This document shows positions 8,285 through 26,539 of a DNA stretch of 64,000 nt, piece after piece. The DNA is from Candidatus Nitrotoga sp. LAW. Lineage in GTDB: Bacteria; Pseudomonadota; Gammaproteobacteria; Burkholderiales; Gallionellaceae. The notes beneath the pieces are model-generated. The model did no database searches and was not told where the DNA came from. It was given only the letters and a program-made list of their open reading frames with translations. Position numbers and translations under genes: made by a program. Position 1 is the stretch's first letter; every line of letters begins with the position of its first letter. The stretch lies in assembly GCA_003402315.1 (NCBI GenBank), contig QFXI01000003.1:702-64701 (forward strand), written 5' to 3'.

Positions 8285-8735
8285 CGAAAATACAGACGAA
8301 ATTAGCGCCGATGACTGGGGTGCGGCAATGGCTGAACAAGCTACCAGCACACCATCCCAATCCGATGATTGGGGTGCGGCAATGGCTGAACAGGCTACCA
8401 GCACACCATCCCAACCCGCCGCCCAACCGCATGCATTCACACAATTCGCTAGCACAACTGGCGCAGCCGTGAGCAACGATCTTGATATGATCATGGACAT
8501 CCCGGTTCAACTAACGGTCGAGCTTGGCCGCACCAAGATGCCCATTAAAAATCTGCTACAACTGGCACAAGGATCGGTGGTGGAATTAACCGGCCAAGCA
8601 GGTGAGCCGCTCGATGTAATGATTAACGGCTTTCTGATCGCGCAAGGCGAGGTCGTAGTAGTGAACGATAAAATCGGTATTCGCCTGACCGACGTTATCA
8701 CCCCATCTGAACGCTTGCGCCGCCTCAGCCGCTGA
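8274..8735 (+). CDS. fliN: Flagellar motor switch protein FliN
   Basis: The C-terminal SpoA/FliN domain reads IPVQLTVELGRTKMPIKNLLQL...VVVNDKIGIRLTDV. The ATG at 8274/8277 follows GGAG and overlaps the fliM stop. The track ORF begins at 8250. Confidence 0.9.
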   Translation: MMTDENTDEISADDWGAAMAEQATSTPSQSDDWGAAMAEQATSTPSQPAAQPHAFTQFASTTGAAVSNDLDMIMDIPVQLTVELGRTKMPIKNLLQLAQGSVVELTGQAGEPLDVMINGFLIAQGEVVVVNDKIGIRLTDVITPSERLRRLSR

Positions 8736-8736
8736 A

Positions 8737-9228
8737 ATGAAAACGGTCGGCAACCTATTTATCAAACCGGGGCTCATTTGGACACGCCTCTGTCTCATCG
8801 TCGGCGTCGGCTTTTACACGCCCCTGCTCGCAACAGCGCAAAACACACGCCCTGCTTACACGCCTCCCCCACCCCCTGCGGCAATGTCATCCGGCAGCAT
8901 ACTGCAGGTTATTTTTAGTTTGCTGTTGGTATTGGCAGCGGTAGTGCTGGTTGCATGGATATTGAAACGCATTAACCTGCCTCAACATGCCGCCGGAAAT
9001 CTAATCAAAGTGCAAGCAGCGGTGGCGGTTGGCCAACGCGAACGTATCGTGCTGGTGGAAATCAACGACACTTGGTTGGTAGTTGGCGTTGCTCCCGGAC
9101 AAGTACGCACCCTACATAGCATGGCCAAAGCCGAATTACCCGCAACACAAGCGGGCATGGCTACCGGTACAAATGGGAAATTTCCGGATTGGCTGAAACA
9201 AATAATGGAAAAGCGTAATGCGCCTTAA
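8737..9228 (+). CDS. fliO: Flagellar biosynthesis protein FliO
   Basis: Small single-TM protein between fliN and fliP. Confidence 0.7.
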
Positions 9229-9964
9229 TTCACTTCTGGGGGCAACCCTGTTATTTAGCCTGATCCCCGCAGCATTTGCCGCCGATCTTGCTTTACCCGC
9301 ATTTAACAGCAGCGCCACGCCAGGCGGTGGGCAAACCTATTCGCTTAGCTTACAAACGTTATTACTGCTCACATCGTTAAGTTTTTTACCGGCCGTAATG
9401 CTGCTGATGACCAGTTTCACCCGCATCATCATCGTGTTATCGCTGCTACGTTCTGCACTTGGCACGCCCTCCTCTCCCCCCAATCAGGTACTGGTCGGAC
9501 TCGCCTTGTTTCTCACTTTCTTCGTTATGTCACCGGTGCTGGATAAAATTTATACGGATGCCTACCTGCCATTCAGTGAAAATAAATTGACGCTGGCACA
9601 AGCGTTCGATACCGGCAGCGTACCGCTCAAGGCATTTATGCTGAGACAAACGCGTGAAAAAGACCTCGCCCTTTTCGTTCAAATCTCCAATAGCGAACCG
9701 TTGCAAAGCGCAGATCAGGTACCCCTAAAAATCTTGGTTCCCGCCTATGTCATCAGCGAACTAAAAACCGCTTTCCAAATTGGTTTTGTAATATTTATCC
9801 CGTTCCTCATCATCGACATGGTGGTGGCCAGCATACTGATGTCTATGGGTATGATGATGGTATCGCCAGCGATGATTTCATTGCCATTCAAGATCATGCT
9901 ATTCGTGCTGGCAGATGGCTGGAATCTGCTCGTCGGATCGCTAGTACATAGCTTTTACACCTGA
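9218..9964 (+). CDS. fliP: Flagellar export apparatus protein FliP
   Basis: Signal peptide plus conserved FliP membrane core ([29 protein letters not shown]...). Confidence 0.95.
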
Positions 9965-9976
9965 GGCCGAACAACG

Positions 9977-10246
9977 ATGACCCCTGAAAGCGTAATGACA
10001 CTTGGTCGCCAAGCATTGGAGTTGACCCTGATGGTATCAGCACCAGTGCTGCTAACAGCCCTAATTATCGGGCTGCTGATCAGTATTTTTCAGGCCGCCA
10101 CCCAAATCAACGAAATGACCCTATCTTTTATTCCAAAACTGATTGGCATGTTCGGTGTGCTGATCATCACCGGCCCGTGGATGGTGGGCATGATGTTGGA
10201 TTATATCCAGCGCCTGTTCAGCAGCATTCCCTGGTTGGTTGGGTAA
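9977..10246 (+). CDS. fliQ: Flagellar export apparatus protein FliQ
   Basis: 89 aa with two TM segments and a typical FliQ sequence. Confidence 0.93.
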   Translation: MTPESVMTLGRQALELTLMVSAPVLLTALIIGLLISIFQAATQINEMTLSFIPKLIGMFGVLIITGPWMVGMMLDYIQRLFSSIPWLVG

Positions 10247-10253
10247 TAGCGTT

Positions 10254-10285
10254 CTATTGATCCGGCATGGCGAAGTATTAACTCC
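10254..10285 (+). repeat. Copy 1 of a short dispersed element, CTATTGATCCGGCATGGCGAAGTATTAACTCC
   Basis: Fills the fliQ-fliR spacer. A 30/32-identical copy lies in inverse orientation at 31686-31717. Confidence 0.85.
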
Positions 10286-11074
10286 ATGATTACCGTCACC
10301 AGCGCCCAGTTACTCTCCTGGCTCGCCCTATTCATTTTTCCATTTGTCCGCATCCTGGCCATGGTTGCCAGTGCACCGATACTGGGTAATAAGCAAGTTC
10401 CGGTGCGTATAAAAATAGGCTTGTCCGTATTGTTGACCATCGTTATCGCGCCTACTTTGACTATACAACCCAATGTCGATCCAGCTTCTGCGCTTGGATT
10501 TTTAATTTTGCTTCAACAGATTCTTGCCGGGCTAGCAATCGGTTTCACCATGCGCTTGATCTTCACCGCAATAGAAATGGCCGGGGATATTATCGGAATT
10601 CAAATGGGGCTGGGATTCGCCATTTTCTTTGACCCTCAAAATTCTTCCTACACGCCAGTGATAGCACAATTTTTAGGCATCCTCGCCGCACTCGTGTTTC
10701 TCAACATGAATGGACATCTCGTCATGCTGGAAGCGCTAGCAGACAGCTTCCGCACTTTTCCCATTAATAGCGCAATCCCTGCGGCAATTGCGCTGCATAC
10801 TCTGGCCTCATGGGGCGGTAGCATTTTCTCTAATGCATTGCAATTAAGCATGCCAGTGATCGGCGCGCTGCTAATCTCCAATTTTGCACTTGGCATCCTG
10901 ACGCGTAGCGCGCCACAACTTAATATCTTCGCGGTCGGCTTCCCGATTACTTTGACAATCGGTTTTGCTACAGTGATGCTATTACTGCCTTATCTCGTTC
11001 CGCTATTGGAAAACATCACCCACACCAGCTTAGAAACTGTATTACGCGTCATGCAGCTATTTGGCAAATCGTAA
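10286..11074 (+). CDS. fliR: Flagellar export apparatus protein FliR
   Basis: 262-aa polytopic membrane protein following fliQ. Confidence 0.9.
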   Translation: MITVTSAQLLSWLALFIFPFVRILAMVASAPILGNKQVPVRIKIGLSVLLTIVIAPTLTIQPNVDPASALGFLILLQQILAGLAIGFTMRLIFTAIEMAGDIIGIQMGLGFAIFFDPQNSSYTPVIAQFLGILAALVFLNMNGHLVMLEALADSFRTFPINSAIPAAIALHTLASWGGSIFSNALQLSMPVIGALLISNFALGILTRSAPQLNIFAVGFPITLTIGFATVMLLLPYLVPLLENITHTSLETVLRVMQLFGKS

Positions 11075-11208
11075 ATAGCGCAATCCTCAGCAATCTTATT
11101 TCAGCAACTAAATGAAGCCGGGTTTGGGTGGCAATAGTGATTTATAGCGGCGTCTATATGCAGTTATGCTATATTTTTCGCCCTAACCAAAAAATCTATG
11201 GAGAAATC

Positions 11209-11637
11209 ATGAAACGTTCCAAACATTACTTCTCATCCCGAATCGCAATGGCCGTATCCACCTTCCTGACTATTGCTATTCTTAGCCAGGAAGCCCAGGC
11301 AGTTTGTAATGAATGCGGTACGGTTACCGATGTAAAAACCGTAACAGTCGAAGGCCAGGGAAGCGGGCTTGGTGCTGTAACAGGCGGGGTATTGGGCGGC
11401 GTAGTGGGCCACCAAGTGGGAGGGGGAAGAGGTAAAGATTTAGCCACTATCGGGGGAGTTGTAGGTGGCGCTTATGTCGGCCATCAAGTCGAAAAAAAAT
11501 CAAAATCCGGAACTAGATATCACGTCTTTGTAGAGATGGAGGATGGTACTAGCAAAACTTTCAAATATTCTTCTAAAACCAGCTATCAGGTAGGCGATCG
11601 CGTCAAAGTGAAAAATGGCAAACTGGTTCGGGCATAA
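11209..11637 (+). CDS. Glycine-zipper (17-kDa surface-antigen-like) outer-membrane lipoprotein
   Basis: Signal peptide, then GxxxG-rich tracts (GLGAVTGGVLGGVVGHQVGGG...GGVVGGAYVG). GGAG lies 6 nt before the ATG at 11209. The track ORF starts upstream at 11128. Confidence 0.7.
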   Translation: MKRSKHYFSSRIAMAVSTFLTIAILSQEAQAVCNECGTVTDVKTVTVEGQGSGLGAVTGGVLGGVVGHQVGGGRGKDLATIGGVVGGAYVGHQVEKKSKSGTRYHVFVEMEDGTSKTFKYSSKTSYQVGDRVKVKNGKLVRA

Positions 11638-11742
11638 AAACACCACATGCCATCAATAACGGCTATCAGATTTCCGTGAATTTCAGCACGATGGACATAA
11701 GATGAGTTATCACCCTGTCCCGTAACTTTATGTGAAAAACAT

Positions 11743-12717
11743 ATGGATCGGACAGAACGCTTTTACAAAATTGAACAACTGCTGATTTCACGTCGGATAG
11801 TACCAATCTCTATATTTCTGGAAGCGCTTGGAATTTCGCAGGCCACTTTCAAGCGTGACCTGGATTACCTGCGTGACCGAATGAACATGCCCATCGAATG
11901 GGATCGGAACGCCAAGGGGTATCGGTATGTAACAACCAATCCAAATGAAAGCTCCTCTACCTTGCCTGGAATGTGGTTCAGTGCATCAGAAGTGCATGCC
12001 CTGCTGACGATGCAACACCTGCTCGCCAATCTTGGCAATGGATTGTTGAGCAGCCATATCGCACCTTTGCAGACCCGCCTTAAAGCCTTGCTTGGCAGCG
12101 CTGACCATAGCGTTGAGGAAGTGGAAAAACGCATCAAGTTGGAACACGCCAGCAGACGTGCCCTGCCCCTTCAGTGTTTTGAGACTATCGCCACGGCAAC
12201 ACTGCAACGAAAGCAATTGCAGATCACCCACTTCAACCGCCAGAACGGGCAACATAACACCCGCATCATTTCACCCCAGCAACTTCTGTTCTATCGCGAT
12301 AACTGGTACGTCGACGCATGGTGCCATCTGAGAAAAGGCATCCGCAGCTTTTCCATTGACGCTATCCGTCATGCCGAATTGGTAGCGGCACCCGCAATTG
12401 AATTACCGCAACCCGAACTTCAGGAATACTTCAAAAAGGGCTACGGCATATTCTCAGGCACAAAGGTAGCTTGGGCAAAACTCAGGTTTACCCCAGAACG
12501 GGCGCGATGGGTTTCCACTGAGCAATGGCATCCCGAGCAAAAATCCCGTTTTGATAAAGAGGGATATTATTGCTTGGAAGTCCCCTATTCCGATGACCGC
12601 GAACTATTGATGGACATACTCAAGCACGGCACTGAAGTCGAAGTAATGGCGCCTAAGGCACTGAGAGGCAGCGTCCGTAAATTGCTTGAATCTGCTTTGG
12701 CGCAATATAAAACCTGA
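11743..12717 (+). CDS. HTH + WYL domain transcriptional regulator (YafY-like)
   Basis: N-terminal DeoR-type HTH (ISQATFKRDLDYLRD). The central WYL-type block reads LLFYRDNWYVDAWCHLRKGIRSFSIDAI, followed by a C-terminal WCX-like region. Confidence 0.8.
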   Translation: MDRTERFYKIEQLLISRRIVPISIFLEALGISQATFKRDLDYLRDRMNMPIEWDRNAKGYRYVTTNPNESSSTLPGMWFSASEVHALLTMQHLLANLGNGLLSSHIAPLQTRLKALLGSADHSVEEVEKRIKLEHASRRALPLQCFETIATATLQRKQLQITHFNRQNGQHNTRIISPQQLLFYRDNWYVDAWCHLRKGIRSFSIDAIRHAELVAAPAIELPQPELQEYFKKGYGIFSGTKVAWAKLRFTPERARWVSTEQWHPEQKSRFDKEGYYCLEVPYSDDRELLMDILKHGTEVEVMAPKALRGSVRKLLESALAQYKT

Positions 12718-12799
12718 AATTTATTTCAGTAGCTCACGCCATGAGCCACCACCCCCACTATCATGGGTTCATCCAAATTAATTCAACAAGGAGAAACCC

Positions 12800-12895
12800 A
12801 TGTGGAAAGAAATCAAAATTAACCCAGACCGGGTGGTCTTTTTCGGATGCATGTTCGGTGGGATTGTGTTGGTTGTTGTGAATATGGTGTATTGA
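12800..12895 (+). CDS. Hypothetical 31-aa hydrophobic peptide (MWKEIKINPDRVVFFGCMFGGIVLVVVNMVY)
   Basis: Not in the ORF track because it is under 60 aa. AAGGAG lies 7 nt upstream of the ATG. One predicted TM helix. Located in the WYL-cas1 intergenic region. Confidence 0.3.
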   Translation: MWKEIKINPDRVVFFGCMFGGIVLVVVNMVY

Positions 12896-13047
12896 GGGGT
12901 GTGGGTGAAGGTGGTGAGCATAGGCCTGTTTCATCCCACATCTCATCTTCGAAAATGTTGGTGTCCATTTTTCCCAGTGTCACCCACCTCAGTGGCGGTG
13001 CCGGTGGCAGATTTGAACCATCGTTAAAGTTATGGAGCATTTCTAAA

Positions 13048-13995
13048 ATGGATCAATTGACTGACTTAAAAGCAATTCTGCACTCCAAACGAGCCAATAT
13101 TTACTATTTAGAGAAATGCCGTGTCATGCAGAAAGATGGACGCGTTCTCTATTTGACGGAAGCTAAAGATGAGCAACTCTACTGGAATATCCCGATTGCC
13201 AATACCACCGTTATTTTATTAGGTACCGGTACTTCTATCACCCAAGCAGCAGTACGCATGCTCGCATCAGCAGGTGTTTTGATCGGCTTTAGTGGAGGTG
13301 GTGGTACGCCACTGCTAGCAGCCAGTGAAATCGAATGGCTCACGCCGCAAAGTGAATATAGACCTACCGAATATGTACAGGGATGGCTATCGTTCTGGTT
13401 TGATGAGAAAAAAAGATTACAGGTTGCTAAACACTTCCAATTGTTGCGTATCAATTTCCTGCAAAGCGCCTGGAACAAAGACAAAGATCTGAAGAATGAA
13501 GGCTTCTTTATAGACGATCAAGCTATTACACAAGCATTTTCCGGTTTCTCAAGTAAAGTGGAGCAAGCAAGTAATGTTACTGAATTATTGTTAATTGAAG
13601 CCCAGCTTACCAAGAAGCTTTATAAAGTCGTAGTTAACCGAACCCAGCAAGAAGATTTTGTTCGTAATTATGACAGCACCGACAATGCAAATGCTTTCCT
13701 GAATCATGGCAATTACCTAGCCTATGGCCTGGCAGCCAGCACACTCTGGGTCTTGGGCATACCGCATGGTTTTGCCGTTATGCATGGCAAAACCCGGCGC
13801 GGCGCTTTGGTATTTGATGTGGCGGATTTAGTCAAAGATGCTCTAGTTCTGCCTTGGGCGTTTGTTTGCGCGAAAGAAAAAATGAGTGAACAGGAATTTC
13901 GGCAACAATGCTTGCAGAAATTTACCGAACATAAGGCACTGGATTTTATGTTTGATACCATCAAACAGGTCAGCTTACAAGGCAGCGCAATATGA
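13048..13995 (+). CDS. cas1: CRISPR-associated endonuclease Cas1, type I-F
   Basis: The N-terminus [20 protein letters not shown] closely resembles I-F Cas1 as I recall the P. aeruginosa protein. The track ORF extends to 12847, but the ATG at 13048 gives the canonical N-terminus. The stop overlaps the cas2-3 start (ATGA). Confidence 0.95.
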
Positions 13996-16922
13996 TGGTG
14001 ACTTTTGTATCCGAATGCGAGAAAAAGGCACTGGCTAGAACCCGTAGAGTTCTCGATGCCTTCGCTAACCGCATCGGCAGCCGCACTTGGCAAACCGTGA
14101 TTACTGAAGACGGCCTAATCGCTGTCAAAACTTTGTTAAGAAAAACCGCCACCAAAAATACCGCCGTGGCATGCCATTGGATACGCTCCAGAAGCCGGAG
14201 TGAACTGGTTTGGATTGTGGGAAATCGAGATCAATTTAATCCGCAAGGCATCGTACCCGTAAACACCACTTTAAAAGAATTAATCATGGATATACCAAGC
14301 AATAAACCGAATCCCAATTTCTTGTATGCCAACACTCATTTGCAACTACTAACTGAACATTTATTTGCCGTTGGCTATGTTGCAGAACATGTATACAAAC
14401 AGCTGATGCCTAATCATGCAAAGCAATCAACCGCTACTTTTGTAGCGGGGTGTTTGCATGATCTAGGAAAAATTGACCCGTGCTTTCAAGATTGGGTGAG
14501 AAATCCAAAGAAAAAGGATTTTGTAGCAGAAGATGGGCAGCATATTGATGATACAAAATTTAGTTTTGACAAACATCCTCGGCACAATGAAGTTTCAGTA
14601 TTGCTTTACCATTTACTCGATCACATAGCGCTAAAACAGATCAACACAGATAACAAAAAATCCATTAAACACGTTATCTATTGGCACCATGCCAAACCAT
14701 TTCGTAAAGAAAAAGACTTTGTAAATTATGGGGACATTCACAAAAAATTGAATGGCAACCTAAAAGACCTAACATTTACTGAATTTTTAGCAAAAGCAAT
14801 TCAATTATTGAAAAGCTTATGCACGCTCGATGTAAAGTATCGGACGGTGGAAGAGTCAGTAATTTCGAAAATCTTCAGTGAAGAAATTGATTTAGACATC
14901 ATCGAAACATTAGACGGATCACTGTTACCGTATTACAAGAAGTATGATGCTCAGGAAAGTATTGAGAAATATCCTGCACAAATTCAGCATAATGCTGACA
15001 ATAACGTCATACGTGCCTGCGTTATTTCGGCGGATCGCTGGGTATCAGCACTTACACCATCAGACTTACACGCACATATTAAAAATAACACGTTCAATAC
15101 GCTAATAGATGAACTTCTATTATTGGAATCGACGCTTTGCTCACATATTGAATTCTGTTTAACGAAATTTCCAGCCAGCGAACGCAGTAAAAAACAAAAT
15201 GAAGTTGCGAGCAAGCTAACCACCGCAAAGGCCGTTGCTGTACTTGCAGGCCCGGCGGGCTGTGGCAAAACAAAAATTGCACTGGAATGGGCTAAATTGA
15301 AAAATGCCCAACAACTAATTTGGATTTGTCCGAGGGTGCAAGTCTGCCAAGGCATATTTGATGATTTAATATCTAAAGATTATTTTGAAGAACTGCTTCC
15401 AAGTGCACAGATAGAAATTAATACCGGAGAATTTAAATATACCAATCAGTGGGGAAAACTAACCCCTGAAGATGAATATTTCTCAGGCAATATCGTTATT
15501 ACCACGATTGATCAGATATTTAGCGCCATCATCACCCACAGCAAAGTTAATACCTTAATTAATTTTCTGAATGCACATGTGGTGTTTGATGAGTTTCACG
15601 AATACGTCAATATGCCTGCTTTCAATTTGCTATTTGCTGAGTTGATCGCTTGTAAACAAAAGCAGGAGCGTTTAGCTAACACCTTATTGGTTTCGGCCAC
15701 ACCGCATTATTTTTATCTGAAACAGGTATTGCAAATCGATCCAGAAGATATCGTCGCTATGCCTTCATTTAATCCAAGTCGCTACCGCATTGAGTTCAAG
15801 GTATTTGATGAAACTAAGCAAGATGACACTAATCCTTTGTATCAACCATATCAATCCAATACCATTGTTATCAGCAATACGGCGCTCACTGCACAAAAAA
15901 GCTTTATTCGTAATCAGCATCAAGAAAACGCCGTGCTATTGCACTCAAAATTTAAAAAAAGTGATAAACAAAGATGGTTTGAAGAAGTGTATGAATCGTT
16001 CAAAAAAGACGGCACACTCAAATTTAATGTTTTACGTAGCGGACCAATTGTTCAAGCCTCCCTGAATATTACCTGTGACTGTATGGTCGCTGAAATTACC
16101 AATGCAGAGAATTGCTTGCAGCGCTTAGGTCGGCAGGATCGTTTTGGTGTCAATAAGGAGGTCAACGTTCACTGTATAGCGGTTCCTGAAGCTATTGACC
16201 AAGGCAAGGGTACAGGAGCCGCCGCCCGTTTTTTATCGCGCATGTACACTTTTGGTTCTGCAAAAGCTTGGTATCAATTTGTAAAAGCCGAGCTGAATGA
16301 CCAGCCTTTTACATTGCCGCAGCTATACGAGTTATATGAGCGGTTCTACCAGTCTGATAGTGGTCAAAAACTTATAGCATCCGATCTAGTCGCTTCACTT
16401 AAGGCAAGCGTGAATTTAATTAATCAAAAAGTGCTTGATCCAATTACTATTTCATCCAAAAAAGTGTTACTGAAAGGCCGAGCTAAAATCAGTAAGAATT
16501 CCTTGCGCGGAGAAAATCGTTTTGTGCAAATGGCGGTATGCGATGTTAATGAACCCAATCAGCCCAAATTTATTGATCAATACGCTTACCAAGCACCAGT
16601 TAATGAACGGGATGATTTTGATAATTTAACGGCTTCCATAGATGAGATCGAGGGCTATGGTGACAGTGATAGAAACTTGCTGGCCTACATGAAAACTAAA
16701 CATCACAACATTATGGGCGGCACTAAAGCCTATAAAGATTTTATCCTGCTTAATGAAGCACGAGATTCAGAATTTCCCATCTACCTGAGTTACACACCCA
16801 ATGATTTACTTCCGGTTGGGGGAGAAAGCGCACGTCATAGTCATGCCATCTATTATGCTGTGTGCGAAAAGCAGCCTATTGGCGGAATTTCCATTAAACA
16901 GCTTAATTCAAATGAGGAGTGA
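13992..16922 (+). CDS. cas3: Cas2-Cas3 fusion (Cas2/3), type I-F
   Basis: N-terminal Cas2 domain ([30 protein letters not shown]...[20 protein letters not shown]). HD motifs ([20 protein letters not shown]). Helicase Walker A GPAGCGKT and a DEFH box. Confidence 0.95.
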
Positions 16923-16925
16923 TAC

Positions 16926-17906
16926 ATGCAAAAAATAACGGGCATTAAAAGCGTGGATTTTAAAGTGGTTGCGTTGGGTCATGGGGTAGTCAACTGGAAT
17001 GGACCGACAACACTTGCAGGCGAGGATGGCAAAACAGTGGATAACCATACGCTGCCTAAACTAAGGGGATATAGCAATTTAACCGGCAAGATAAAAGAAG
17101 AAACCGGTTATAAATACAAAAAACAGGCTGCTGACATAGACTTTAAAGAAACCCCCATGTATATCAGCCAAAATTGCATCCGCCATCATTTGTTTAGAGA
17201 CCAGGCATTTGATTTGCACTATGCCAAAGATAAAAACCTGCAAAATGTGTTGGCTTCAATTACGGGTCTAATACGCGGCTATGTTGTGCCTTCAAGCCAG
17301 TGCAAACGCACAAGCCCATTACTTCTGGAGGATTTTGTTGACCAGTTGGGCAATGGCAATTTTGAGCAAATGGGGCGTTCCGGTTCAAAAGAAAAAGGCA
17401 AAGATGACAAAGGTGATGATGTCGCGAGCAATTCTTTTTTTTCCAAAACCACGTTTGGTGAAACCGAATATCTGGCCTACGGCTCGATCAGTATTGAGCA
17501 ACTACAGTTTATTTCGTTGGATAAAAAATTTGATCGTGCTTCCATGATTATTAAAGAGGGTGAAGGTGAAAAAATCGCCGAATCTGTGCAAAATTTTATC
17601 AAAAGTCTTGACCCTTCTCGAAATCCAAAAGCTACGTTTCATCAAAACTATGTTCGTGGTGGCACTATATTTGAAGAGGGTGAAGTCGGCATTTTATTGG
17701 ATAACGAAGCCATTGATATTTTGATTCAAGAAACCATCCGAATGATTAGCGAATTAAGCATTCGCCAAGCCAAAGGTTATATGTACGTAAATAGCGTGCT
17801 CATGGACTATAACGACAGCCATAAAATGATGCGCATAAAACGCTCGGAAAGCGAAATATCAGAAACACCAGAAACTAACTATGCCGTTTATTTCTACGCT
17901 AAATAG
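16926..17906 (+). CDS. cas7: Type I-F2 Cascade backbone subunit, probably Cas7fv
   Basis: Assigned by position: it is the first gene after cas2-3 in the I-F2 order cas1, cas2-3, cas7fv, cas5fv, cas6f. At 326 aa it shows no resemblance to Csy1/2/3 by eye. Confidence 0.6.
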
Positions 17907-17916
17907 AGGTGGGTAT

Positions 17917-18927
17917 ATGCGTATTACGATTAAATATGAAGCGGTTTGGCAAAATTCCTTCTTGGATGGCTCTAATAATGAGTCTTTGCCAAAGAACGGA
18001 CGTAACTTTGTCGGCTCAATGACCACAATGAAGAGTGATGGCAACTTTATTCGCCGGGCCATAGGCAAAGATACTGTGATGGGTATCTTAAACCGGTTAA
18101 TTGGTGATCAACGTAAACTGTATCAGGCACGACAGTCACCCAATTATTACTTTAAGGATATTGAAGGAGAATTAACCGTTATTGATCGTAGCAAAATCAG
18201 TAATGCAGAAGTAGTGTATATCCGCAATATTTCGGGCAACGAGGATCAGAAATCATTTACCGGCATGATTAAAGCAACCGATCCTGCTTTTACCTCTATT
18301 TTTTCGAGTCGACTTTGGAGTGTGCTGCACTTAGAGTTAAACGATGTACTGAAATTTATTAATGACCCAAGTTATACGATAAATAACAGTGATAGTTTTG
18401 ATCCTTTAAGCGTTATTAATCAATTAGAATTGCTCAACGAGCTTAAACCCATTGATGTATCAGGGGAGGTGGCGGTTACATTAGATCTTTTAAAATCAGA
18501 ATATTCTGATGTCGATTACAAATTAACTTCCAAAGGACAAATCACACCTATTACATTTTATTGTTCAGCACTTTATTTGCAAATTGAGCGTTTAAAGAAT
18601 GGATATGATTTATCGACAATATTAACGGAAAGAGGTGGATTAAGTGGTATTTCCAAGCGAGGTTTTACTAAAAAAGACTTTATGGCTCGTTATACCACCG
18701 GCAAAAAGAAGTTGATTTGGGGTAATCCCTATCTGCTGAAAGAAAGACGCAAAGGCGAAGGCGAAGTGACCTCACTGCTAACTAAAGCCAATGGAACACT
18801 CGAAATTCAGTTAAATATTGCCCAAGAAAAAGCACAGCAACTTAAGGATATGATCGAAGCCGCTGGCGTTTCAAGCTTTTATTTGGGCAAAAAAGGGGTA
18901 GCGTATGTTGATAGTCTTAGGATATAG
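17917..18927 (+). CDS. cas5: Type I-F2 Cascade subunit, probably Cas5fv
   Basis: Second gene after cas2-3. GAGGTG precedes the ATG at 17917; the track ORF starts at 17881, overlapping the upstream gene. The assignment is positional only. Confidence 0.55.
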   Translation: MRITIKYEAVWQNSFLDGSNNESLPKNGRNFVGSMTTMKSDGNFIRRAIGKDTVMGILNRLIGDQRKLYQARQSPNYYFKDIEGELTVIDRSKISNAEVVYIRNISGNEDQKSFTGMIKATDPAFTSIFSSRLWSVLHLELNDVLKFINDPSYTINNSDSFDPLSVINQLELLNELKPIDVSGEVAVTLDLLKSEYSDVDYKLTSKGQITPITFYCSALYLQIERLKNGYDLSTILTERGGLSGISKRGFTKKDFMARYTTGKKKLIWGNPYLLKERRKGEGEVTSLLTKANGTLEIQLNIAQEKAQQLKDMIEAAGVSSFYLGKKGVAYVDSLRI

Positions 18928-18936
18928 GGGAAAATC

Positions 18937-19521
18937 ATGAAACATTACCTTGAAATAACCTTATTGCCCAATCCAGACATTAACCTGCTTACTCTCTGGT
19001 CAAAAGTCTTCCAACAAATCCACCTAGGCTTAGTCGAAATGCAGGATGACCAGAAGCGAGTACCGATTGGCGTTTCATTTCCTGAATACGTCATTGGTGA
19101 AAAATATAGCGTGCTTGGCGGTAAGTTAAGACTATTTGCTCAGGATGAATTCACGCTTGTTCGGTTTGATGCTGCGAAATGGTTGGTTCGTTTAAGCGAC
19201 TATGTGCATTGCACCGGGGTTCGTTCCGTGCCGGAGAAAATAGCAGGGCATGCAATATATCAACGTTATCAACCAAAGATAAACGCCGAGCGGTTGGCAC
19301 GGCGTTATGCGCGTAGGAAAGGGGTTGATTACGATACAGCTTTGGCATGCTATGGTGAGATGTCCCATAAATGTATTCCATTACCATTCATTCGCCAAAA
19401 AAGCCTGAGCAGTGGGCAGGAATTTTGTTTGTGGATTAAAAAAAATAGGGTGACAGAGCCAGTGGGGTCAGCCTATAGCAGCTATGGATTAAGCGCGAGT
19501 ACAACAGTCCCTGAGTTTTGA
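18937..19521 (+). CDS. cas6f: CRISPR endoribonuclease Cas6f (Csy4)
   Basis: The N-terminus MKHYLEITLLPNPD...IGVSFPEY and the C-terminal YGLS...VPEF parallel Csy4. 194 aa. Confidence 0.93.
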   Translation: MKHYLEITLLPNPDINLLTLWSKVFQQIHLGLVEMQDDQKRVPIGVSFPEYVIGEKYSVLGGKLRLFAQDEFTLVRFDAAKWLVRLSDYVHCTGVRSVPEKIAGHAIYQRYQPKINAERLARRYARRKGVDYDTALACYGEMSHKCIPLPFIRQKSLSSGQEFCLWIKKNRVTEPVGSAYSSYGLSASTTVPEF

Positions 19522-19549
19522 GTTTGGTTTTTTTATTTCTTCAAAATTG

Positions 19550-19577
19550 TTGGAAAAGTGTAGCAGAATGCTACAAT
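19550..19577 (+). promoter_or_regulatory. Putative sigma-70 promoter with overlapping palindromic operator for the TA pair
   Basis: TTGGAA (19550-19555), a 16-nt spacer, then TACAAT (19572-19577). The perfect inverted repeat TGTAGCA-gaa-TGCTACA at 19559-19575 overlaps the spacer and the -10. Confidence 0.45.
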
Positions 19578-19607
19578 ATTTTTGTTGTTTGGTAGAGTGA
19601 AAGAATT

Positions 19608-20024
19608 ATGGCAAAAGCGATATCGCCCATACGATTGCAAGAAGAATTGATGCAGGCAGCGACACTGGCCGGTAAGCGCCATCACCGGAGCGCGGCAGAG
19701 CAGATTGAGTATTGGGCGGAAATAGGGCATAGCGTTGGTGCGTTCCTGAAGCCAGATGATCTATTGTTGGTCTCAGCGGGATTGGCAAATATCCGTGTTG
19801 AGCCAGTAATGGGGCAGCCTGTCATCCCGAGCGCGGTATTTCAAGAACTGGAGCAAAGCCGTGCAAGCGGCGCATTAGCATGGGCGGTTACATCCAGTCC
19901 GGTTAGGTATCAGGTTTCATTAGCTTTTCCAGGCATGTTGGAGCAAATCAGCGCAAACGGTGAAATCAAGGTGGGGAAATTCGAACACGGCCAGTTTTTT
20001 GTTAAAACTAACGAATCATCTTGA
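19608..20024 (+). CDS. ParD-like type II antitoxin family protein
   Basis: The N-terminal block RLQEELMQAATLAGKRHHRSAAEQIEYWAEIG resembles the ParD_like family. Its stop overlaps the start of the downstream P-loop gene. Confidence 0.6.
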   Translation: MAKAISPIRLQEELMQAATLAGKRHHRSAAEQIEYWAEIGHSVGAFLKPDDLLLVSAGLANIRVEPVMGQPVIPSAVFQELEQSRASGALAWAVTSSPVRYQVSLAFPGMLEQISANGEIKVGKFEHGQFFVKTNESS

Positions 20025-20608
20025 TGGAGAAGCAGCAGTTATGGCTACTTGCGGGCGGTAATGGTGCAGGTAAAAGTACGTTTTACCGCATGTATTTAGA
20101 GCCGAAAGGAATGCCCTTTGTGAACGCTGATCTACTCGCCAGGCAATTATTTCCTGATGAGTCTGAAGCACGTAGTTACGAAGCGGCGATAATCGCAGGG
20201 GAGATTCGCGCACAATTCCTGCAGGAAGGGCGTACCTTCTGCTTTGAAACAGTATTCTCGCATCCATCAAAAATTGATTTCATCGCCCAAGCAAAGGTGA
20301 TGGGCTATGAAGTCATTTTAGTGTTTATTCATTTGAGAGATATTGCACTCAACCATGCGCGGATTGCCCAACGGGTTATCGAGGGCGGGCATTATGTCCC
20401 GGCTGAAAAAGTCAACAGCAGAATACCTAGAACCCTGGCGCACATCCAGCAAACGCTGTCACTGTGTGATTACGTGTATATCCTCGACAATTCCCGTGCA
20501 GACGATCCTTTCCAGCAGATTGCCGTTTTGCGCCATGGCCAGCTAGAGATTGCCAAGCAACCACTGGCGGAATGGAGCAAAGTGATCCTGACGGATTACC
20601 TGAAATAG
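20024..20608 (+). CDS. Zeta-toxin-like P-loop kinase/ATPase (COG4185-like)
   Basis: Walker A LLAGGNGAGKST. About 194 aa, and translationally coupled to the upstream small gene (TGATG). The track ORF starts on TTG at 20021. Confidence 0.65.
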   Translation: MEKQQLWLLAGGNGAGKSTFYRMYLEPKGMPFVNADLLARQLFPDESEARSYEAAIIAGEIRAQFLQEGRTFCFETVFSHPSKIDFIAQAKVMGYEVILVFIHLRDIALNHARIAQRVIEGGHYVPAEKVNSRIPRTLAHIQQTLSLCDYVYILDNSRADDPFQQIAVLRHGQLEIAKQPLAEWSKVILTDYLK

Positions 20609-20750
20609 CGAACGGATTACCAAATTTTTTCTGGTTCTTTAACAAGTCATAGTTATCAATTGGTTACAAGGTGGCCCGATTATTTTGGTTTTTTACGTTA
20701 GAATGATGTAACCATATGTTACAAATGACTATTTGTAATGTATCGCTGAG
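20609..20750 (+). promoter_or_regulatory. CRISPR leader
   Basis: AT-rich 142 bp immediately upstream of the first repeat. It contains a perfect IHF-consensus match, TATCAATTGGTTA, at 20654-20666. It also contains the inverted repeat TTACAAAT-gact-ATTTGTAA at 20719-20738. Confidence 0.6.
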
Positions 20751-23700
20751 GTTTGCTGCCGCACAGGCAGCTTAGAAATTGATTCGGTTCGATTTACATA
20801 TGTTTCTGCAGTTTGCTGCCGCACAGGCAGCTTAGAAATACACAACGAGTAACGCTGTTCATGGTAATGTGTTTGCTGCCGCACAGGCAGCTTAGAAAGC
20901 TCTATTAAAAATGCTTGGTCAGGCGATAGTGTTTGCTGCCGCACAGGCAGCTTAGAAAGGTTTCTTCTCTGTAATCAATTCACTAGCTGCGTTTGCTGCC
21001 GCACAGGCAGCTTAGAAAAAAATACAAATGCGGAGAGTGCGGCAGCATTCGTTTGCTGCCGCACAGGCAGCTTAGAAAATTCATATTTGTATCGACCAAA
21101 TGGAGTTTTCGTTTGCTGCCGCACAGGCAGCTTAGAAATTTTTGACGAATGTTTGAACTTGTGTGTTCACGTTTGCTGCCGCACAGGCAGCTTAGAAAAC
21201 AGCAGCCTGACATCAACGTGGCTGGGCGAAGTTTGCTGCCGCACAGGCAGCTTAGAAATTTGTCGGATGGTGGTGGATTGCATGTGCTGTGTTTGCTGCC
21301 GCACAGGCAGCTTAGAAATGACGCTTCGCTTTTCTTAAATTCTTCGGTCTGTTTGCTGCCGCACAGGCAGCTTAGAAATGTGAGGTCGGCAAGTTCGATT
21401 AAATTTTCCCGTTTGCTGCCGCACAGGCAGCTTAGAAATAGTGGATATGGTCAAGAAACTACACAGTCAAGTTTGCTGCCGCACAGGCAGCTTAGAAAAT
21501 TATCTTTTTCATGGCGGCGCGCATGGCGTTGTTTGCTGCCGCACAGGCAGCTTAGAAATGCTTTTGCATTTCTCAAATGGCTTGGTGCTTGTTTGCTGCC
21601 GCACAGGCAGCTTAGAAATTTAACAGCCATGTGCAGATGCAGTGCACCACGTTTGCTGCCGCACAGGCAGCTTAGAAAATGTGTGGTGGCATTTATCCAG
21701 CTGAACGTTAGTTTGCTGCCGCACAGGCAGCTTAGAAAATTACCGCAAGCACCAGTATTACCCCAACCTTGTTTGCTGCCGCACAGGCAGCTTAGAAAGA
21801 AATAAATTTTATGGCACAAGTTATTTTTTTGTTTGCTGCCGCACAGGCAGCTTAGAAATTTAATAGATACAAATGAAAATAGGCTGTCAAGTTTGCTGCC
21901 GCACAGGCAGCTTAGAAAAAGCAATATACCAATGGCTTGGCCACCTCCGGGTTTGCTGCCGCACAGGCAGCTTAGAAAGCTACGTCACGGCTTGATTTAT
22001 TTTCAATATCGTTTGCTGCCGCACAGGCAGCTTAGAAATGCAAGTGCCGCGTCAGCCGCTGTATTTGCCGGTTTGCTGCCGCACAGGCAGCTTAGAAATA
22101 TCTTCTCCGCCAAAACCTTTTGATTAAGGTGTTTGCTGCCGCACAGGCAGCTTAGAAAAATACTTAATTTAAAGGAAAAATTACTATGATGTTTGCTGCC
22201 GCACAGGCAGCTTAGAAAGCTCCAAGTTTGCCCGCGCATTGCGGGCACCCGTTTGCTGCCGCACAGGCAGCTTAGAAAATAAAGCAATGTAAACCTCGGC
22301 AACATCTCGCGTTTGCTGCCGCACAGGCAGCTTAGAAACAATGGGTGCGAAACGGTGGCGAGTCGGAGTCGTTTGCTGCCGCACAGGCAGCTTAGAAAGT
22401 CTTTCCATTCCATAACCATTGCTTTTCTCAGTTTGCTGCCGCACAGGCAGCTTAGAAAGAATTTTCAGAAGAATGGAAGCGGTGGACGACGTTTGCTGCC
22501 GCACAGGCAGCTTAGAAATTCTGAGATTTACAGAATTCAGTCTGCGCTGTGTTTGCTGCCGCACAGGCAGCTTAGAAAACACACATCCATTCTGCGACTT
22601 TCGCGCCTACGTTTGCTGCCGCACAGGCAGCTTAGAAAGCTTGGTTGCGTTTAAAGGCAATGCCTGGGCTGTTTGCTGCCGCACAGGCAGCTTAGAAAAA
22701 AATTGGATGCAGCCATTTTAGCTTGGCAATGTTTGCTGCCGCACAGGCAGCTTAGAAAAGATATCGCGCGCAAGATCGATACGCTCGGTAGTTTGCTGCC
22801 GCACAGGCAGCTTAGAAAAATAATACGTCAATCATTTATCAGCTCCATGTGTTTGCTGCCGCACAGGCAGCTTAGAAATGTTAGACCGTGTCGACTCATT
22901 GCGATTTACTGTTTGCTGCCGCACAGGCAGCTTAGAAAATATGCAGCGCGTCGGCGGTGGTTTCCCAGTCGTTTGCTGCCGCACAGGCAGCTTAGAAAGC
23001 AAATCAATCTTGAGCAATGTCACATGTGGGGTTTGCTGCCGCACAGGCAGCTTAGAAATGACAAACGATTGGGAAAGATTTTCCGTAGCCGTTTGCTGCC
23101 GCACAGGCAGCTTAGAAAGCACAGGCGAAATCTACCAGGCGAATCCTAATGTTTGCTGCCGCACAGGCAGCTTAGAAATGAAACATCGGACTTCGTAAGA
23201 GTAGTGCAATGTTTGCTGCCGCACAGGCAGCTTAGAAAACGACTAGCGCAGGCATTGACGCGCTAGGCTGGTTTGCTGCCGCACAGGCAGCTTAGAAATC
23301 AGTGATTCTATCGCGTGGTTCCCGACATTAGTTTGCTGCCGCACAGGCAGCTTAGAAAATCAGCATTACGCACAGGCACCGCTTGCCTGCGTTTGCTGCC
23401 GCACAGGCAGCTTAGAAAATTTAACTCAAGCTCGACGCGCAGCAAATGGTTGTTTGCTGCCGCACAGGCAGCTTAGAAAGCAAGAATCCTGTTGTGCTGG
23501 GTTGACGAAGCGTTTGCTGCCGCACAGGCAGCTTAGAAAACATATACGCCCGGACCGCCGTCATTTTTGCAGTTTGCTGCCGCACAGGCAGCTTAGAAAT
23601 ATTTATTAAGCGATTTAAACGCGTTTTGAGCGTTTGCTGCCGCACAGGCAGCTTAGAAAAATTAGCAGATGATGTGCCGTACAGCATCTTCAGTTTGCTG

Positions 23701-26239
23701 CCGCACAGGCAGCTTAGAAATCTCTTTTACATTCAGTGCAGGGGAGTAATGCGTTTGCTGCCGCACAGGCAGCTTAGAAAAAAACAAGATCGTTTGCAAA
23801 GATGACGGCGGTGTTTGCTGCCGCACAGGCAGCTTAGAAAATGTATTAAAATTAGATATTACTCCTATTACTGTTTGCTGCCGCACAGGCAGCTTAGAAA
23901 ATGACATTTGCATTTAATTTTCGTGGCGCGCCGTTTGCTGCCGCACAGGCAGCTTAGAAATATATCAATTTATATTGAAAATTATGTTGTGCGTTTGCTG
24001 CCGCACAGGCAGCTTAGAAAATATTGGGCGCTGGCCCTGACATGACCGCAGAGTTTGCTGCCGCACAGGCAGCTTAGAAAAAAAATCAGCACCAGCCCAA
24101 CGGTCAGAGCGTGTTTGCTGCCGCACAGGCAGCTTAGAAAATAGTGAATAGCCATAAACGCCATCGTCTGGCGTTTGCTGCCGCACAGGCAGCTTAGAAA
24201 ACTAATACTGTAACAATAACGAATGCCGATCCGTTTGCTGCCGCACAGGCAGCTTAGAAATGTTTATTGCTTAACCATTCCTACCTCAAACCGTTTGCTG
24301 CCGCACAGGCAGCTTAGAAAACGATAACCCAGCGCTTGTTGTGCGTCCGTCTGTTTGCTGCCGCACAGGCAGCTTAGAAATGTTCTGCGAGAGCCGCCGC
24401 GTTTTGCACGGTGTTTGCTGCCGCACAGGCAGCTTAGAAATTCCATTCATCTTTTGTTAGCCACACAAGCTCGTTTGCTGCCGCACAGGCAGCTTAGAAA
24501 ACCATGAATTCAAAATAGAAGAGGTTGAATATGTTTGCTGCCGCACAGGCAGCTTAGAAATAGTGGATATGGTCAAGAAACTACACAGTCAAGTTTGCTG
24601 CCGCACAGGCAGCTTAGAAAAATTGCTGATTGGCGCAGTTGCAGGGTATTTAGTTTGCTGCCGCACAGGCAGCTTAGAAAACCAACCAGCTTTTTTGGCT
24701 GCACCATGGCACGTTTGCTGCCGCACAGGCAGCTTAGAAATTCCACACTACGCAGCCGGGCTAATAGATGCTGTTTGCTGCCGCACAGGCAGCTTAGAAA
24801 TGAGATAGCGCATCCCACCACCTTCGAACCGTGTTTGCTGCCGCACAGGCAGCTTAGAAAGTATATCGCCCCAGCGTGATCGACATAGAGTTGTTTGCTG
24901 CCGCACAGGCAGCTTAGAAAACAATGCGCGCCCTGCTGCGTGTGGAGGTGGTGTTTGCTGCCGCACAGGCAGCTTAGAAATAGCGCAAAAGACTGCCCCA
25001 TTGCCTTGCTAAGTTTGCTGCCGCACAGGCAGCTTAGAAAAACAAGGCGGTACTGGTACCTGTTCACGCATCGTTTGCTGCCGCACAGGCAGCTTAGAAA
25101 ATTATCCCGATCAAATATCAGTCATCCTAGATGTTTGCTGCCGCACAGGCAGCTTAGAAAATTTATTTAAGCGTTTCCAGCATTCAGCGTGAGTTTGCTG
25201 CCGCACAGGCAGCTTAGAAAGTTGTACTTCGCGCATCGCCAGTAACAAAAGTGTTTGCTGCCGCACAGGCAGCTTAGAAAACGAAATACAGCAGCAACCT
25301 GAGCACCTACACGTTTGCTGCCGCACAGGCAGCTTAGAAATTGCGCGTCGATGTCAGCAAGGAGCGCCAGATGTTTGCTGCCGCACAGGCAGCTTAGAAA
25401 ACTTTCAAAGCCCGACATTCGGCAAAGAGCCAGTTTGCTGCCGCACAGGCAGCTTAGAAAGCGGAAAAATCATACAGAGAAGCACTGGGACTGTTTGCTG
25501 CCGCACAGGCAGCTTAGAAAGATTATTTTTGCTATGCAGTATCTTTTCATAAGTTTGCTGCCGCACAGGCAGCTTAGAAATAGCCGCCGCCGCAGCCAGG
25601 TGATCTGGTGCTGTTTGCTGCCGCACAGGCAGCTTAGAAATGCTCAACTGGCTACACCGCGAAGTATTCGCCGTTTGCTGCCGCACAGGCAGCTTAGAAA
25701 TTTTACATTCTTGTTGGTGTCGTCCGGCTCTTGTTTGCTGCCGCACAGGCAGCTTAGAAACATCATCATGTCACCGTTACCATAGCGGGGAGGTTTGCTG
25801 CCGCACAGGCAGCTTAGAAAATGTCCTGCAGCGCAGTAATGATTTCGGCTTTGTTTGCTGCCGCACAGGCAGCTTAGAAAGATTTGCGCGATTGAAGCAC
25901 GAATCACTGACCGTTTGCTGCCGCACAGGCAGCTTAGAAAACAAACGCCCGACCCAATCCGTCTCGGGTTTCGTTTGCTGCCGCACAGGCAGCTTAGAAA
26001 TCATACGCATTTGTCCGCCAGCACAACCGCCAGTTTGCTGCCGCACAGGCAGCTTAGAAATATTTCAGACAAAGCTGCATTTAATAACCATTGTTTGCTG
26101 CCGCACAGGCAGCTTAGAAAATAACCAACTTACACAAACTCAATAATCCAAGTTTGCTGCCGCACAGGCAGCTTAGAAAAGAGTGGCGCGCCGAACAAGC
26201 GGATAACAAGGGTTTGCTGCCGCACAGGCAGCTTAGAAA
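20751..26239 (+). CRISPR. Type I-F CRISPR array: 92 identical 28-nt repeats (GTTTGCTGCCGCACAGGCAGCTTAGAAA) and 91 spacers
   Basis: The period is 60 bp and every repeat is identical on inspection. The repeat carries the I-F stem-loop CTGCC-GCACA-GGCAG and the 8-nt handle CTTAGAAA, which orients it on the + strand. Spacers are 32 nt except two of 33 nt (23419-23451, 23660-23692) and one of 31 nt (26121-26151). A possible degenerate terminal repeat starts at 26272 after one more 32-nt unit. Confidence 0.99.
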
Positions 26240-26539
26240 TCAAGCTGGCGGTAAGACTGAACCTCATGGTAGTGCTGTTAATTGCTTATTAAAGTAAATA
26301 AATAAAACCAGCTGTGCCGAGAGGCAGATACCTTGAAGTCGGCATCACCCCATGCTCGCAATGTTTCGTCGAGCCGGATTATGAGATCAGATTGATCTTT
26401 CGTACTCGGCAGTGGCGCTGTAGTCGACAGATGAGTAAAAACTCACACCTTGAGTGCCACCTGTAATTGTTGTGAAGGAAGATTAAAGAATCAAATGGAG
26501 CGGCTCAAGTCCACCCCTCAAATTCTGTTTATCCGCGTT

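Follow-up and report, generated by a model that had tools for sequence, protein, structure and literature searches.

The window analysed here is the whole 64,000-nucleotide stretch of DNA from Candidatus Nitrotoga sp. LAW (GenBank assembly GCA_003402315.1, contig QFXI01000003.1, positions 702 to 64,701 of the forward strand). The subject is a pair of small genes that separates cas6f from the leader of a type I-F2 (I-Fv) CRISPR locus within it. An earlier reading of the letters alone, referred to below as the original prediction, had described the pair as a protein toxin-antitoxin (TA) module of two co-oriented genes with a stop/start overlap, TGATG, at 20022-20026. Both genes are present between cas6f and the leader, and they overlap by ATGA. 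The type I-F2 assignment rests on five contiguous genes (cas1, cas2-3, cas7fv, cas5fv, and cas6f), no cas8f, and 28-nt I-F repeats. The coordinates of the pair, of its control region and of the surrounding CRISPR-Cas features are collected in Table 1.

Table 1. Features of the CRISPR-Cas island and of the gene pair within it (positions in the window).
Feature	Position	Strand	Basis or remark
WYL-domain regulator gene	11743..12717	+	left edge of CRISPR-Cas island; PADLOC CAS-associated WYL, E 1.4e-37
cas1	12847..13995	+	longest open reading frame (ORF); true start probably further downstream
cas2-3 fusion	13992..16922	+	976-aa ORF, kept in related I-F2 loci
cas7fv	16926..17906	+	NCBIfam NF040577 cas_Cas7fv, E 2e-148, 494 bits
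cas5fv	17881..18927	+	Pfam Cas5fv_helical PF20158, E 3.6e-66
cas6f (csy4)	18937..19521	+	Pfam Cas_Csy4, E 3.8e-55; TIGR02563, E 9.7e-40
Promoter of the pair	19550..19577	+	TTGGAA-16-TACAAT; TG-extended -10 (TGCTACAAT)
Palindromic operator (predicted)	19559..19575	.	TGTAGCA-gaa-TGCTACA; perfect, overlaps -10
Antitoxin gene, 138 aa	19608..20024	+	ParD_like N-terminus, family-specific C-terminal part
Toxin gene, 194 aa	20024..20608	+	zeta/AAA_33-type P-loop kinase; Pfam, AlphaFold2 (AF2), Foldseek
CRISPR leader, complete, 142 bp	20609..20750	+	5' motif and length match pair-free loci
CRISPR array, I-F	20751..26239	+	92 identical 28-nt repeats, 91 spacers; Rfam CRISPR-DR4

In profile searches, both proteins fall into the families expected of them, above the curated Pfam cut-offs. 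The ParD-like N-terminus proposed for the first protein is borne out by a match of residues 7-41 to ParD_like PF11903 (E 2.4e-8, 34.3 bits against a curated cut-off of 23), which covers positions 3-37 of the 73 in this MetJ/Arc clan profile. A search for homologues returned 306 sequences, the best 120 of which all carry PF11903, and the name 'TA system antitoxin ParD family protein' is given to some of the homologues. No NCBIfam model matches this protein. As would be expected of an antitoxin gene, its gene lies just 5' of the toxin gene, is coupled to it by the ATGA overlap, and has a palindrome, a predicted operator, in its own promoter.

The second protein had been likened to zeta toxins on account of its P-loop, and it matches Zeta_toxin PF06414 (E 7.9e-9; 35.7 bits, cut-off 22.3) as well as AAA_33 (E 5.8e-9). 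Its Walker A motif, GxxGxGK[ST], reads GGNGAGKST at residues 11-19, and in an alignment of 24 homologues G11-T19 show little or no variation, and K17, D36, R113, and R117 none. The last three of these compare with D36 and R116 of the mycobacterial toxin Rv0366c by reported positions, and are candidate counterparts of the catalytic Asp that follows strand 2 in zeta (D67) and PezT (D66) and of the Arg on which catalysis and antitoxin binding depend. The GTxR motif, which binds UDP-N-acetylglucosamine (UDP-GlcNAc), is absent from the 194-aa sequence, and the substrate is therefore probably not UDP-GlcNAc. The AF2 model of the toxin has a predicted local distance difference test score (pLDDT) of 91.7 and a predicted template-modeling (TM) score of 0.88, and its best Foldseek matches, all at probability 1.0, are AvrRxo1-ORF1, which is a zeta-family NAD kinase, a Clostridium thermocellum polynucleotide kinase domain, PezT, and zeta. 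For AvrRxo1-ORF1, PezT, and zeta (the last two through structures 1gvn, 3q8x, and 2p5t), E values range from 6e-8 to 3e-7 and TM scores from 0.62 to 0.72 on the query; the polynucleotide kinase matches the fold about equally well (TM score 0.74 on the target, root-mean-square deviation 2.6 A). At the sequence level, a PDB search with the toxin alone or as a profile recovered only the N-terminus of dephospho-CoA kinase (P-loop/DAD region) and no zeta or PezT, and NCBIfam gave kinase matches below threshold only. Among the candidates, 4142 toxin homologues were found at E < 1e-5, some of them annotated as zeta toxin family and some as AAA family ATPase, and more distant homologues (at most 42% identity) were found on 390 plasmids. 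These matches support a type II TA assignment, with a predicted ParD_like ribbon-helix-helix antitoxin and a small zeta-type kinase, for which toxicity, neutralization, and DNA binding would follow by homology.

The proposed promoter, TTGGAA-16-TACAAT, is the sole sigma-70-like site within 19300-20900, with a TG preceding its -10, and the palindrome that overlaps it reads TGTAGCAgaaTGCTACA. When the region 5' of the antitoxin gene was extracted from every locus fetched, the form TTGTAGCA-N3-TGCTACAAT was found to be kept in 81 homologous loci (76 distinct sequences), with or without CRISPR nearby. The center of the loop lies 39-46 nt before the antitoxin ATG in 78 of the 81, and the core pairs vary little or not at all across the 76 sequences. 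Thus, the site and the perfect palindrome overlapping it stand as originally predicted, and are conserved, but the -35 is not: TTGGAA was rejected as a conserved part of the promoter, since the closest relative reads CCAAAA there and the other loci vary. Since the -35 varies and TGCTACAAT is kept, the conserved promoter is a TG-extended -10 embedded in the right half-site. Such a placement is the layout that would be expected for autorepression, and the conservation pattern supports a palindrome that behaves like an operator-promoter.

In one clade, the arms of the operator are lengthened to 13-18 perfect base pairs (loci L088, L092/93, L100, L101, L108/111, L109, L113, L120, L135, L151, and L164; the corresponding part of the window is 19554-19580). 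The sequence of the outer arm varies by locus while complementarity is kept, and 157 cells are changed on both sides as compared to 105 ± 9 after shuffling, a value that 0 of 500 shuffles reached. The extended palindrome sits 15-25 nt 3' of the cas6f stop and may serve a separate function as an RNA or DNA hairpin, or may have arisen through palindrome-correcting template switching.

The view that the array canonically follows cas6f directly is confirmed by 53 related loci that lack the pair, in which the first repeat begins 130-142 bp past the cas6f stop (130-133 bp in 52 of the 53). In 30 loci that carry the pair, the first repeat begins 122-146 bp past the toxin stop instead. Leaders of both kinds open with a T-run, followed by CTCTTTAA[A/C]AAT and then AAATCAG. 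This shared motif and the comparable length indicate that the promoter and the two genes form a cassette, placed after the cas6f stop and ahead of a complete leader, whose 5' motif directly adjoins the toxin stop. In all CRISPR-linked loci the pair runs in the same direction as the array, the opposite orientation being found in none. Most leaders 3' of the pair contain a -10-like TGCTATACT located 5-10 nt before repeat 1 (a pattern only). The clade to which the window belongs has no clear TGCTATACT element before repeat 1, and a weak terminator-like hairpin is found in the leader of the window at 20662-20676. A scan of 19300-21000 against Rfam returned CRISPR repeats only.

The pair recurs at this junction in dozens of loci, drawn from two samples, so that its position there is no accident. 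In a scan with one genome per species, 80 loci were selected by Cas6f, and the pair, or at least the antitoxin gene, lies between cas6f and the array in 14 of them. Nine of the 14 are I-F2 and five are others (four look I-F1, and L077 is degenerate), so that a tie to I-F2 alone does not hold; the hosts are Nitrotoga, Nitrosomonas, Burkholderiales, Methylococcales, and Thiotrichales (Beta- and Gammaproteobacteria). The second sample comprises the nearest 80 of more than 516 metagenomic toxin relatives (58-95% identical), the query itself being CRISPR-linked. Here, 21 loci have cas6f directly 5' and/or I-F repeats starting 135-159 bp past the toxin gene, and cas6f C-terminal coding sequence adds L099 and L115. 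This brings the count to about 23 of 80 (about 29%), a proportion that applies to the subfamily, since the sample consists of the closest relatives; with a distant half of the tree that is free of CRISPR, the CRISPR association is thus a property of the subfamily. In many of these CRISPR-linked loci, Cas6f is 26-41% identical to that of the window and the toxin 62-68%. Among isolate genomes, one of four toxin homologues checked on long contigs is CRISPR-linked, namely that of Methyloprofundus sedimenti, with the order csy1-4, ParD_like, zeta, array. The contexts of CRISPR-free copies are heterogeneous. One such copy, in Cycloclasticus (L165/L166, 4648-7386), adjoins genes with SLFN-like helicase and NYN-domain Pfam matches, a neighborhood that may be another defence context. 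The outcome that would have spoken against the original prediction, homologous pairs scattered over genomes with no enrichment beside CRISPR-cas, was not what was found. One subfamily of the pair is long-term cargo of type I-F loci, placed exactly between the cas6f stop and an intact leader and pointing into the array.

The pair tracks the leader and the array more closely than it tracks the cas genes. In six lineages, a 3' remnant of cas6f is followed by the pair and a leader (and by an array in five); an intact cas6f is either missing or is an unrelated gene to which this stretch has become attached. In L001-3, where the pair is most closely related to that of the window (toxin 86% identical), the order is a WYL gene, about 184 bp, a 46-bp cas6f 3' remnant, the same operator ahead of the pair, then the leader, a repeat and a second, degenerate repeat, and finally unrelated genes. 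Its deletion corresponds to 12902-19475 of the window (cas1 to cas6f). A 50-codon cas6f remnant lies 5' of the pair in L099, while in L101 a cas6f with leader and a first array comes before a second set, which consists of a cas6f remnant, the pair, another leader, and another array. In the M. sedimenti locus (L164, GCA_002072955.1), csy4 is separated from the pair by a solo repeat and a 12-nt cas6f remnant, and the leader and array come after the pair. Between L104 and L105, nucleotide identity is 93% from the cas6f remnant through the pair and the leader, as compared to about 32% identity of the intact upstream cas6f.

The window itself is a mosaic, with Cas1, Cas2-3, and Cas5fv most similar to those of L005, a pair-free locus (Cas5fv 90% identical), as compared to 65-66% identity of Cas5fv to the pair-carrying L004 and L084. 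Cas6f, on the other hand, is 88% identical to that of L004/L084 vs. 79% to that of L005, and the pair is closest to that of L004/L084 (82-96% identical). Pairwise identities of Cas6f and toxin correlate (Pearson 0.69; Mantel, 0 of 2000), and the toxin (60-100% identical) is more conserved than the neighboring Cas6f. Taken together, these observations indicate that a block running from the cas6f 3' end through the pair and the leader into the array is co-inherited, is sometimes recombined, and outlives loss of the cas operon. It had been suggested that the module stabilizes the cas/array junction by addiction. The pair does stay with the leader and the array, but it gives the cas genes no visible protection, as these are lost in L001-3, with similar remnants in L099, L101, L104/L105, and L164. 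At a larger scale, the island at about 11670-26242 (WYL gene to array end) is collinear with that of Candidatus Nitrotoga sp. CP45 (L004) at about 79% nucleotide identity, with unrelated flanks, and the whole island appears to move as a unit. The WYL gene adjoins the pair in the relatives L001 (90% identical at the amino acid level) and L004 (94%), and Cas1 is 73-93% identical to the Cas1 of related I-F loci by tblastn.

CreTA, an RNA toxin-antitoxin under CRISPR control that is known from type I-B and has also been engineered or reported for I-F, addicts cells to Cascade. It resembles the pair described here in that a TA is embedded in a type I CRISPR-cas locus and that a stabilizing addiction role has been proposed, and the original prediction drew this analogy. 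Its mechanism fails here, as neither a spacer nor a pseudo-repeat targets the promoter. Among the spacers, the one that best fits the pair's promoter region (19480-19650) matches it at 20 of 32 positions, which lies within the shuffled maxima of 18-22 and hence at chance level, and no degenerate repeat above chance was found in the window at 11001-20750 or in 30 related spacers between cas6f and the antitoxin gene. With no guide match and no degenerate repeat, CreTA-type Cascade control is excluded for the pair family. CreTA is RNA-based, whereas both partners of the pair are proteins, with no creA-like pseudo-repeat and no promoter-complementary spacer, and control of the pair is thus independent of Cascade. 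Furthermore, since the pair stays after cas loss, it cannot addict cells to Cascade. A repeat hairpin occurs within 500 nt 5' of the pair in only 2 of 88 loci, L101 and L164, and these repeats look like recombination scars. The solo repeat of L164 (3438-3520), to which only that of L101 is similar, lies between csy4 and the operator, matches at 22 of 28 positions, and has an intact Cas6f hairpin; read-through transcripts could be cleaved there by Cas6f.

Pairs of the same architecture have been characterized in mycobacteria. Rv0366c (toxin) and Rv0367c (antitoxin) of Mycobacterium tuberculosis form a bacteriostatic and neutralized pair in which K15, D36, and R116 of the toxin are required and the UDP-GlcNAc site is absent (PMC6362051), and a pair from Mycobacterium sp. 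MHSD3 is likewise toxic and neutralized (PMC5728571). In these PezAT-like pairs, as in the window, a PF11903 antitoxin is encoded 5' of a kinase of about 195 aa of the AAA_33/zeta type, and their sizes (129/197 and 119/195 aa) are close to the 138/194 aa found here. The likeness to Rv0366c, taken from its published description, extends to the P-loop Lys, Asp 36, an Arg near 116, and the missing GTxR. No CRISPR neighborhood and no conserved operator have been reported for the mycobacterial pairs, whereas the family of the window has both. With epsilon/zeta and PezAT, the pair shares the P-loop kinase fold, the Zeta_toxin profile, and an antitoxin-first two-gene operon. It differs from them in that its toxin is about 80 residues shorter than canonical zeta or PezT, lacks GTxR, and has no sequence-level PDB match to either; canonical antitoxins are epsilon or the helix-turn-helix PezA, while that of the window belongs to the ParD_like ribbon-helix-helix family. 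The module type is thus known, as a non-canonical PezAT-like, ParD_like/zeta pair.

On this basis it appears reasonably probable, if far from assured, that a functional PezAT-like type II addiction module is stable long-term cargo of the I-F leader-array block. By analogy with known modules, the antitoxin, alone or with the toxin, would bind TGTAGCA-N3-TGCTACA, and as the palindrome overlaps the module's own extended -10, binding is proposed to repress the operon. The C-terminal part of the antitoxin would block the kinase. Upon gene loss or a stop in expression, the less stable antitoxin would decay, and the freed kinase would phosphorylate a nucleotide-type metabolite, an NAD- or dephospho-CoA-like ribose hydroxyl being more probable than UDP-GlcNAc, so that growth would stop. 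Any deletion that takes out the leader-proximal end of the locus would consequently carry a penalty. Thus, the pair would persist and keep the leader and array attached, while the upstream cas genes would be free to be lost or swapped.

Several observations weigh against this account. The pair is missing from 66 of the 80 related I-F loci and is therefore dispensable for CRISPR function. In a neighbor-joining tree of the toxin, no member of the distant half is CRISPR-linked, and most of the nearer half is, with two escapes nested in it. Toxicity, neutralization, and DNA binding rest on homology, and the AF2 model of the antitoxin monomer is weak (pLDDT 74), showing one long N-terminal helix and no significant fold match. 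The toxin gene is frameshifted or degenerate in L013, L056, and L066, where assembly error is possible since all three are metagenome bins. Arrays with and without the pair do not differ significantly in length (medians of 47 and 29 repeats, Mann-Whitney p = 0.33), and the four longest complete arrays are all in pair-carrying loci. Finally, other TA modules are stacked at the cas6f-leader junction, as judged from ORF translations read by eye. Because these modules share it, the junction may be a permissive hotspot. Patchy presence, toxin decay, indifferent array size, and company at the junction, together with an island that moves between genomic contexts, are also what would be expected if the pair were a neutral passenger that inserted at a permissive gap and hitch-hikes on mobile I-F islands with no effect on stability or function. 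This is considered unlikely, as a single family dominates the junction across lineages with Cas6f divergence down to about 25% identity, purifying selection on both genes and on the operator is evident, and cas deletions repeatedly end just before the promoter of the pair. A slightly less likely explanation is that the position matters for transcription, the promoter of the pair giving stress-inducible read-through into the array with no strong terminator between them, such that loss of antitoxin raises precursor CRISPR RNA (pre-crRNA). The uniform co-orientation, the toxin stop that abuts the leader motif, the mere weak hairpin in the window's leader, and the lack in its clade of a clear TGCTATACT, seen in other pair-carrying clades, are all compatible with such coupling. 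However, pair-free loci have the same leader, which is presumably self-transcribed, most leaders 3' of the pair have the -10-like pattern of their own, and a repressed TA promoter would add little at steady state. A comparison of terminator-like hairpins after CRISPR-linked and other toxin genes yielded loose AT-rich hairpins only and hence no usable contrast.

It is doubtful, at about the level of the neutral passenger, that the pair serves as an abortive-infection-type back-up, in which phage shut-off or a disabled I-F system lets the antitoxin decay and the kinase arrest the cell, so that the population is protected, anti-CRISPRs are penalized, and two defences cooperate. Such logic has been proposed for TA cargo in cas loci (bioRxiv 10.1101/2023.03.03.530964). 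It would suit an association of pair and array that is strong, old, and I-F-specific across Cas6f divergence down to 24% pairwise identity, a toxin that is better conserved than the adjacent Cas6f, and the Cycloclasticus copy beside SLFN-like helicase and NYN-domain genes. Against it, the PADLOC defence models matched neither the antitoxin nor the toxin, no Cascade-dependent control element was found, the pair persists after cas deletion, and most close homologues lie in unrelated, non-defence contexts. Very improbable is a kinase that is not a toxin and acts on a CRISPR substrate, such as the 5'-OH left by Cas6f on CRISPR RNA (crRNA), with the small protein as its regulator. The fold does match the C. 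thermocellum polynucleotide kinase about as well as zeta, and the gene is located directly after cas6f, but CRISPR is missing from the neighborhood of about 70% of the closest homologues and of every more distant one, and homologues are common on plasmids. In addition, the conserved self-operator and the ATGA coupling are TA hallmarks, and homologues of the same architecture are toxic and neutralized (PMC6362051; PMC5728571). These alternatives may co-exist with the addiction-cargo account. A more far-reaching version of that account, which is tentative and unlikely, is an 'array guard': the subfamily would be specialized on I-F arrays, anchor the leader and the newest spacers against deletion, let the block move between cas operons, and, once loss of antitoxin during phage attack de-represses its promoter, both arrest the cell and drive additional pre-crRNA transcription into the array. 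If so, the pair would be a Cascade-independent protein counterpart of CreTA that guards immune memory and not effector genes.

Keeping a CRISPR locus is costly and loss is frequent, and repeat recombination shortens arrays; CreTA is the best-studied answer to the problem of retention. If the pair stabilizes or mobilizes the leader-array block, or feeds its transcription, it would be a second and mechanistically different tie between addiction and immunity, and such a role would explain orphan I-F arrays. The pair can also serve as an easy marker of blocks exchanged between cas operons; its parts are small, and a cultured carrier, M. sedimenti (GCA_002072955.1), is available. TA genes have been reported, on statistical grounds, to be enriched between the repeats and the nearest cas gene in types I-B, I-E, I-F1, and I-D, at gene-shuffling hotspots (bioRxiv 10.1101/2023.03.03.530964). 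That cargo resembles the pair in occupying the repeat-cas interval and in having related loci without cargo. Mini-array control is stressed for it, mainly in I-D, whereas the family of the window has its own operator and no mini-array, and is a single protein family with a fixed position over deep divergence that travels with the leader and array. In agreement with the earlier remark that no description of the arrangement was known for I-F2 systems, the literature covered, with subscription-only papers outside that coverage, contains no description of the pair at the cas6f-leader junction, of its operator, or of its co-travel with the leader and array. The recurrent architecture thus appears to be undescribed.

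Further observations concern the surroundings of the pair. Among the modules that share the junction, a VapBC pair lies 5' of the ParD_like/zeta pair in L044, L048 (10790-11430), L049, and L091. In Crenothrix (L019, 10662-12749), the gap holds a GNAT/ribbon-helix-helix (TacAT-like) pair, then a fusion of ParD_like with a VapB-type part, and then VapC in place of the kinase; L014 has a similar gap with an antitoxin-only match. Two tandem copies of cas6f precede the array in L018 (10001-12452) and L053 (3537-6201). The I-F2 relatives L009, L014, L018, and L019 have about 900 extra bp between cas2-3 and cas7fv with minus-strand repeat-like matches, and the I-F1 relatives L044, L060, L064, and L075 have a repeat-like match between cas1 and cas2-3. 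These matches among the cas genes may be regulatory mini-arrays; the window has none. In the array of the window, the last of the 92 repeats is identical to the others, so that a degenerate terminal repeat is absent, and the spacer TAGTGGATATGGTCAAGAAACTACACAGTCAA is present twice, at about 21439 and about 24561. Directly upstream of the island, ORF translations suggest a flagellar export cluster at 7283-11074 (fliM, fliN, fliO, fliP, fliQ, and fliR-like ORFs), after which the translation of an ORF at 11128-11637 gives a small glycine-zipper-type protein.

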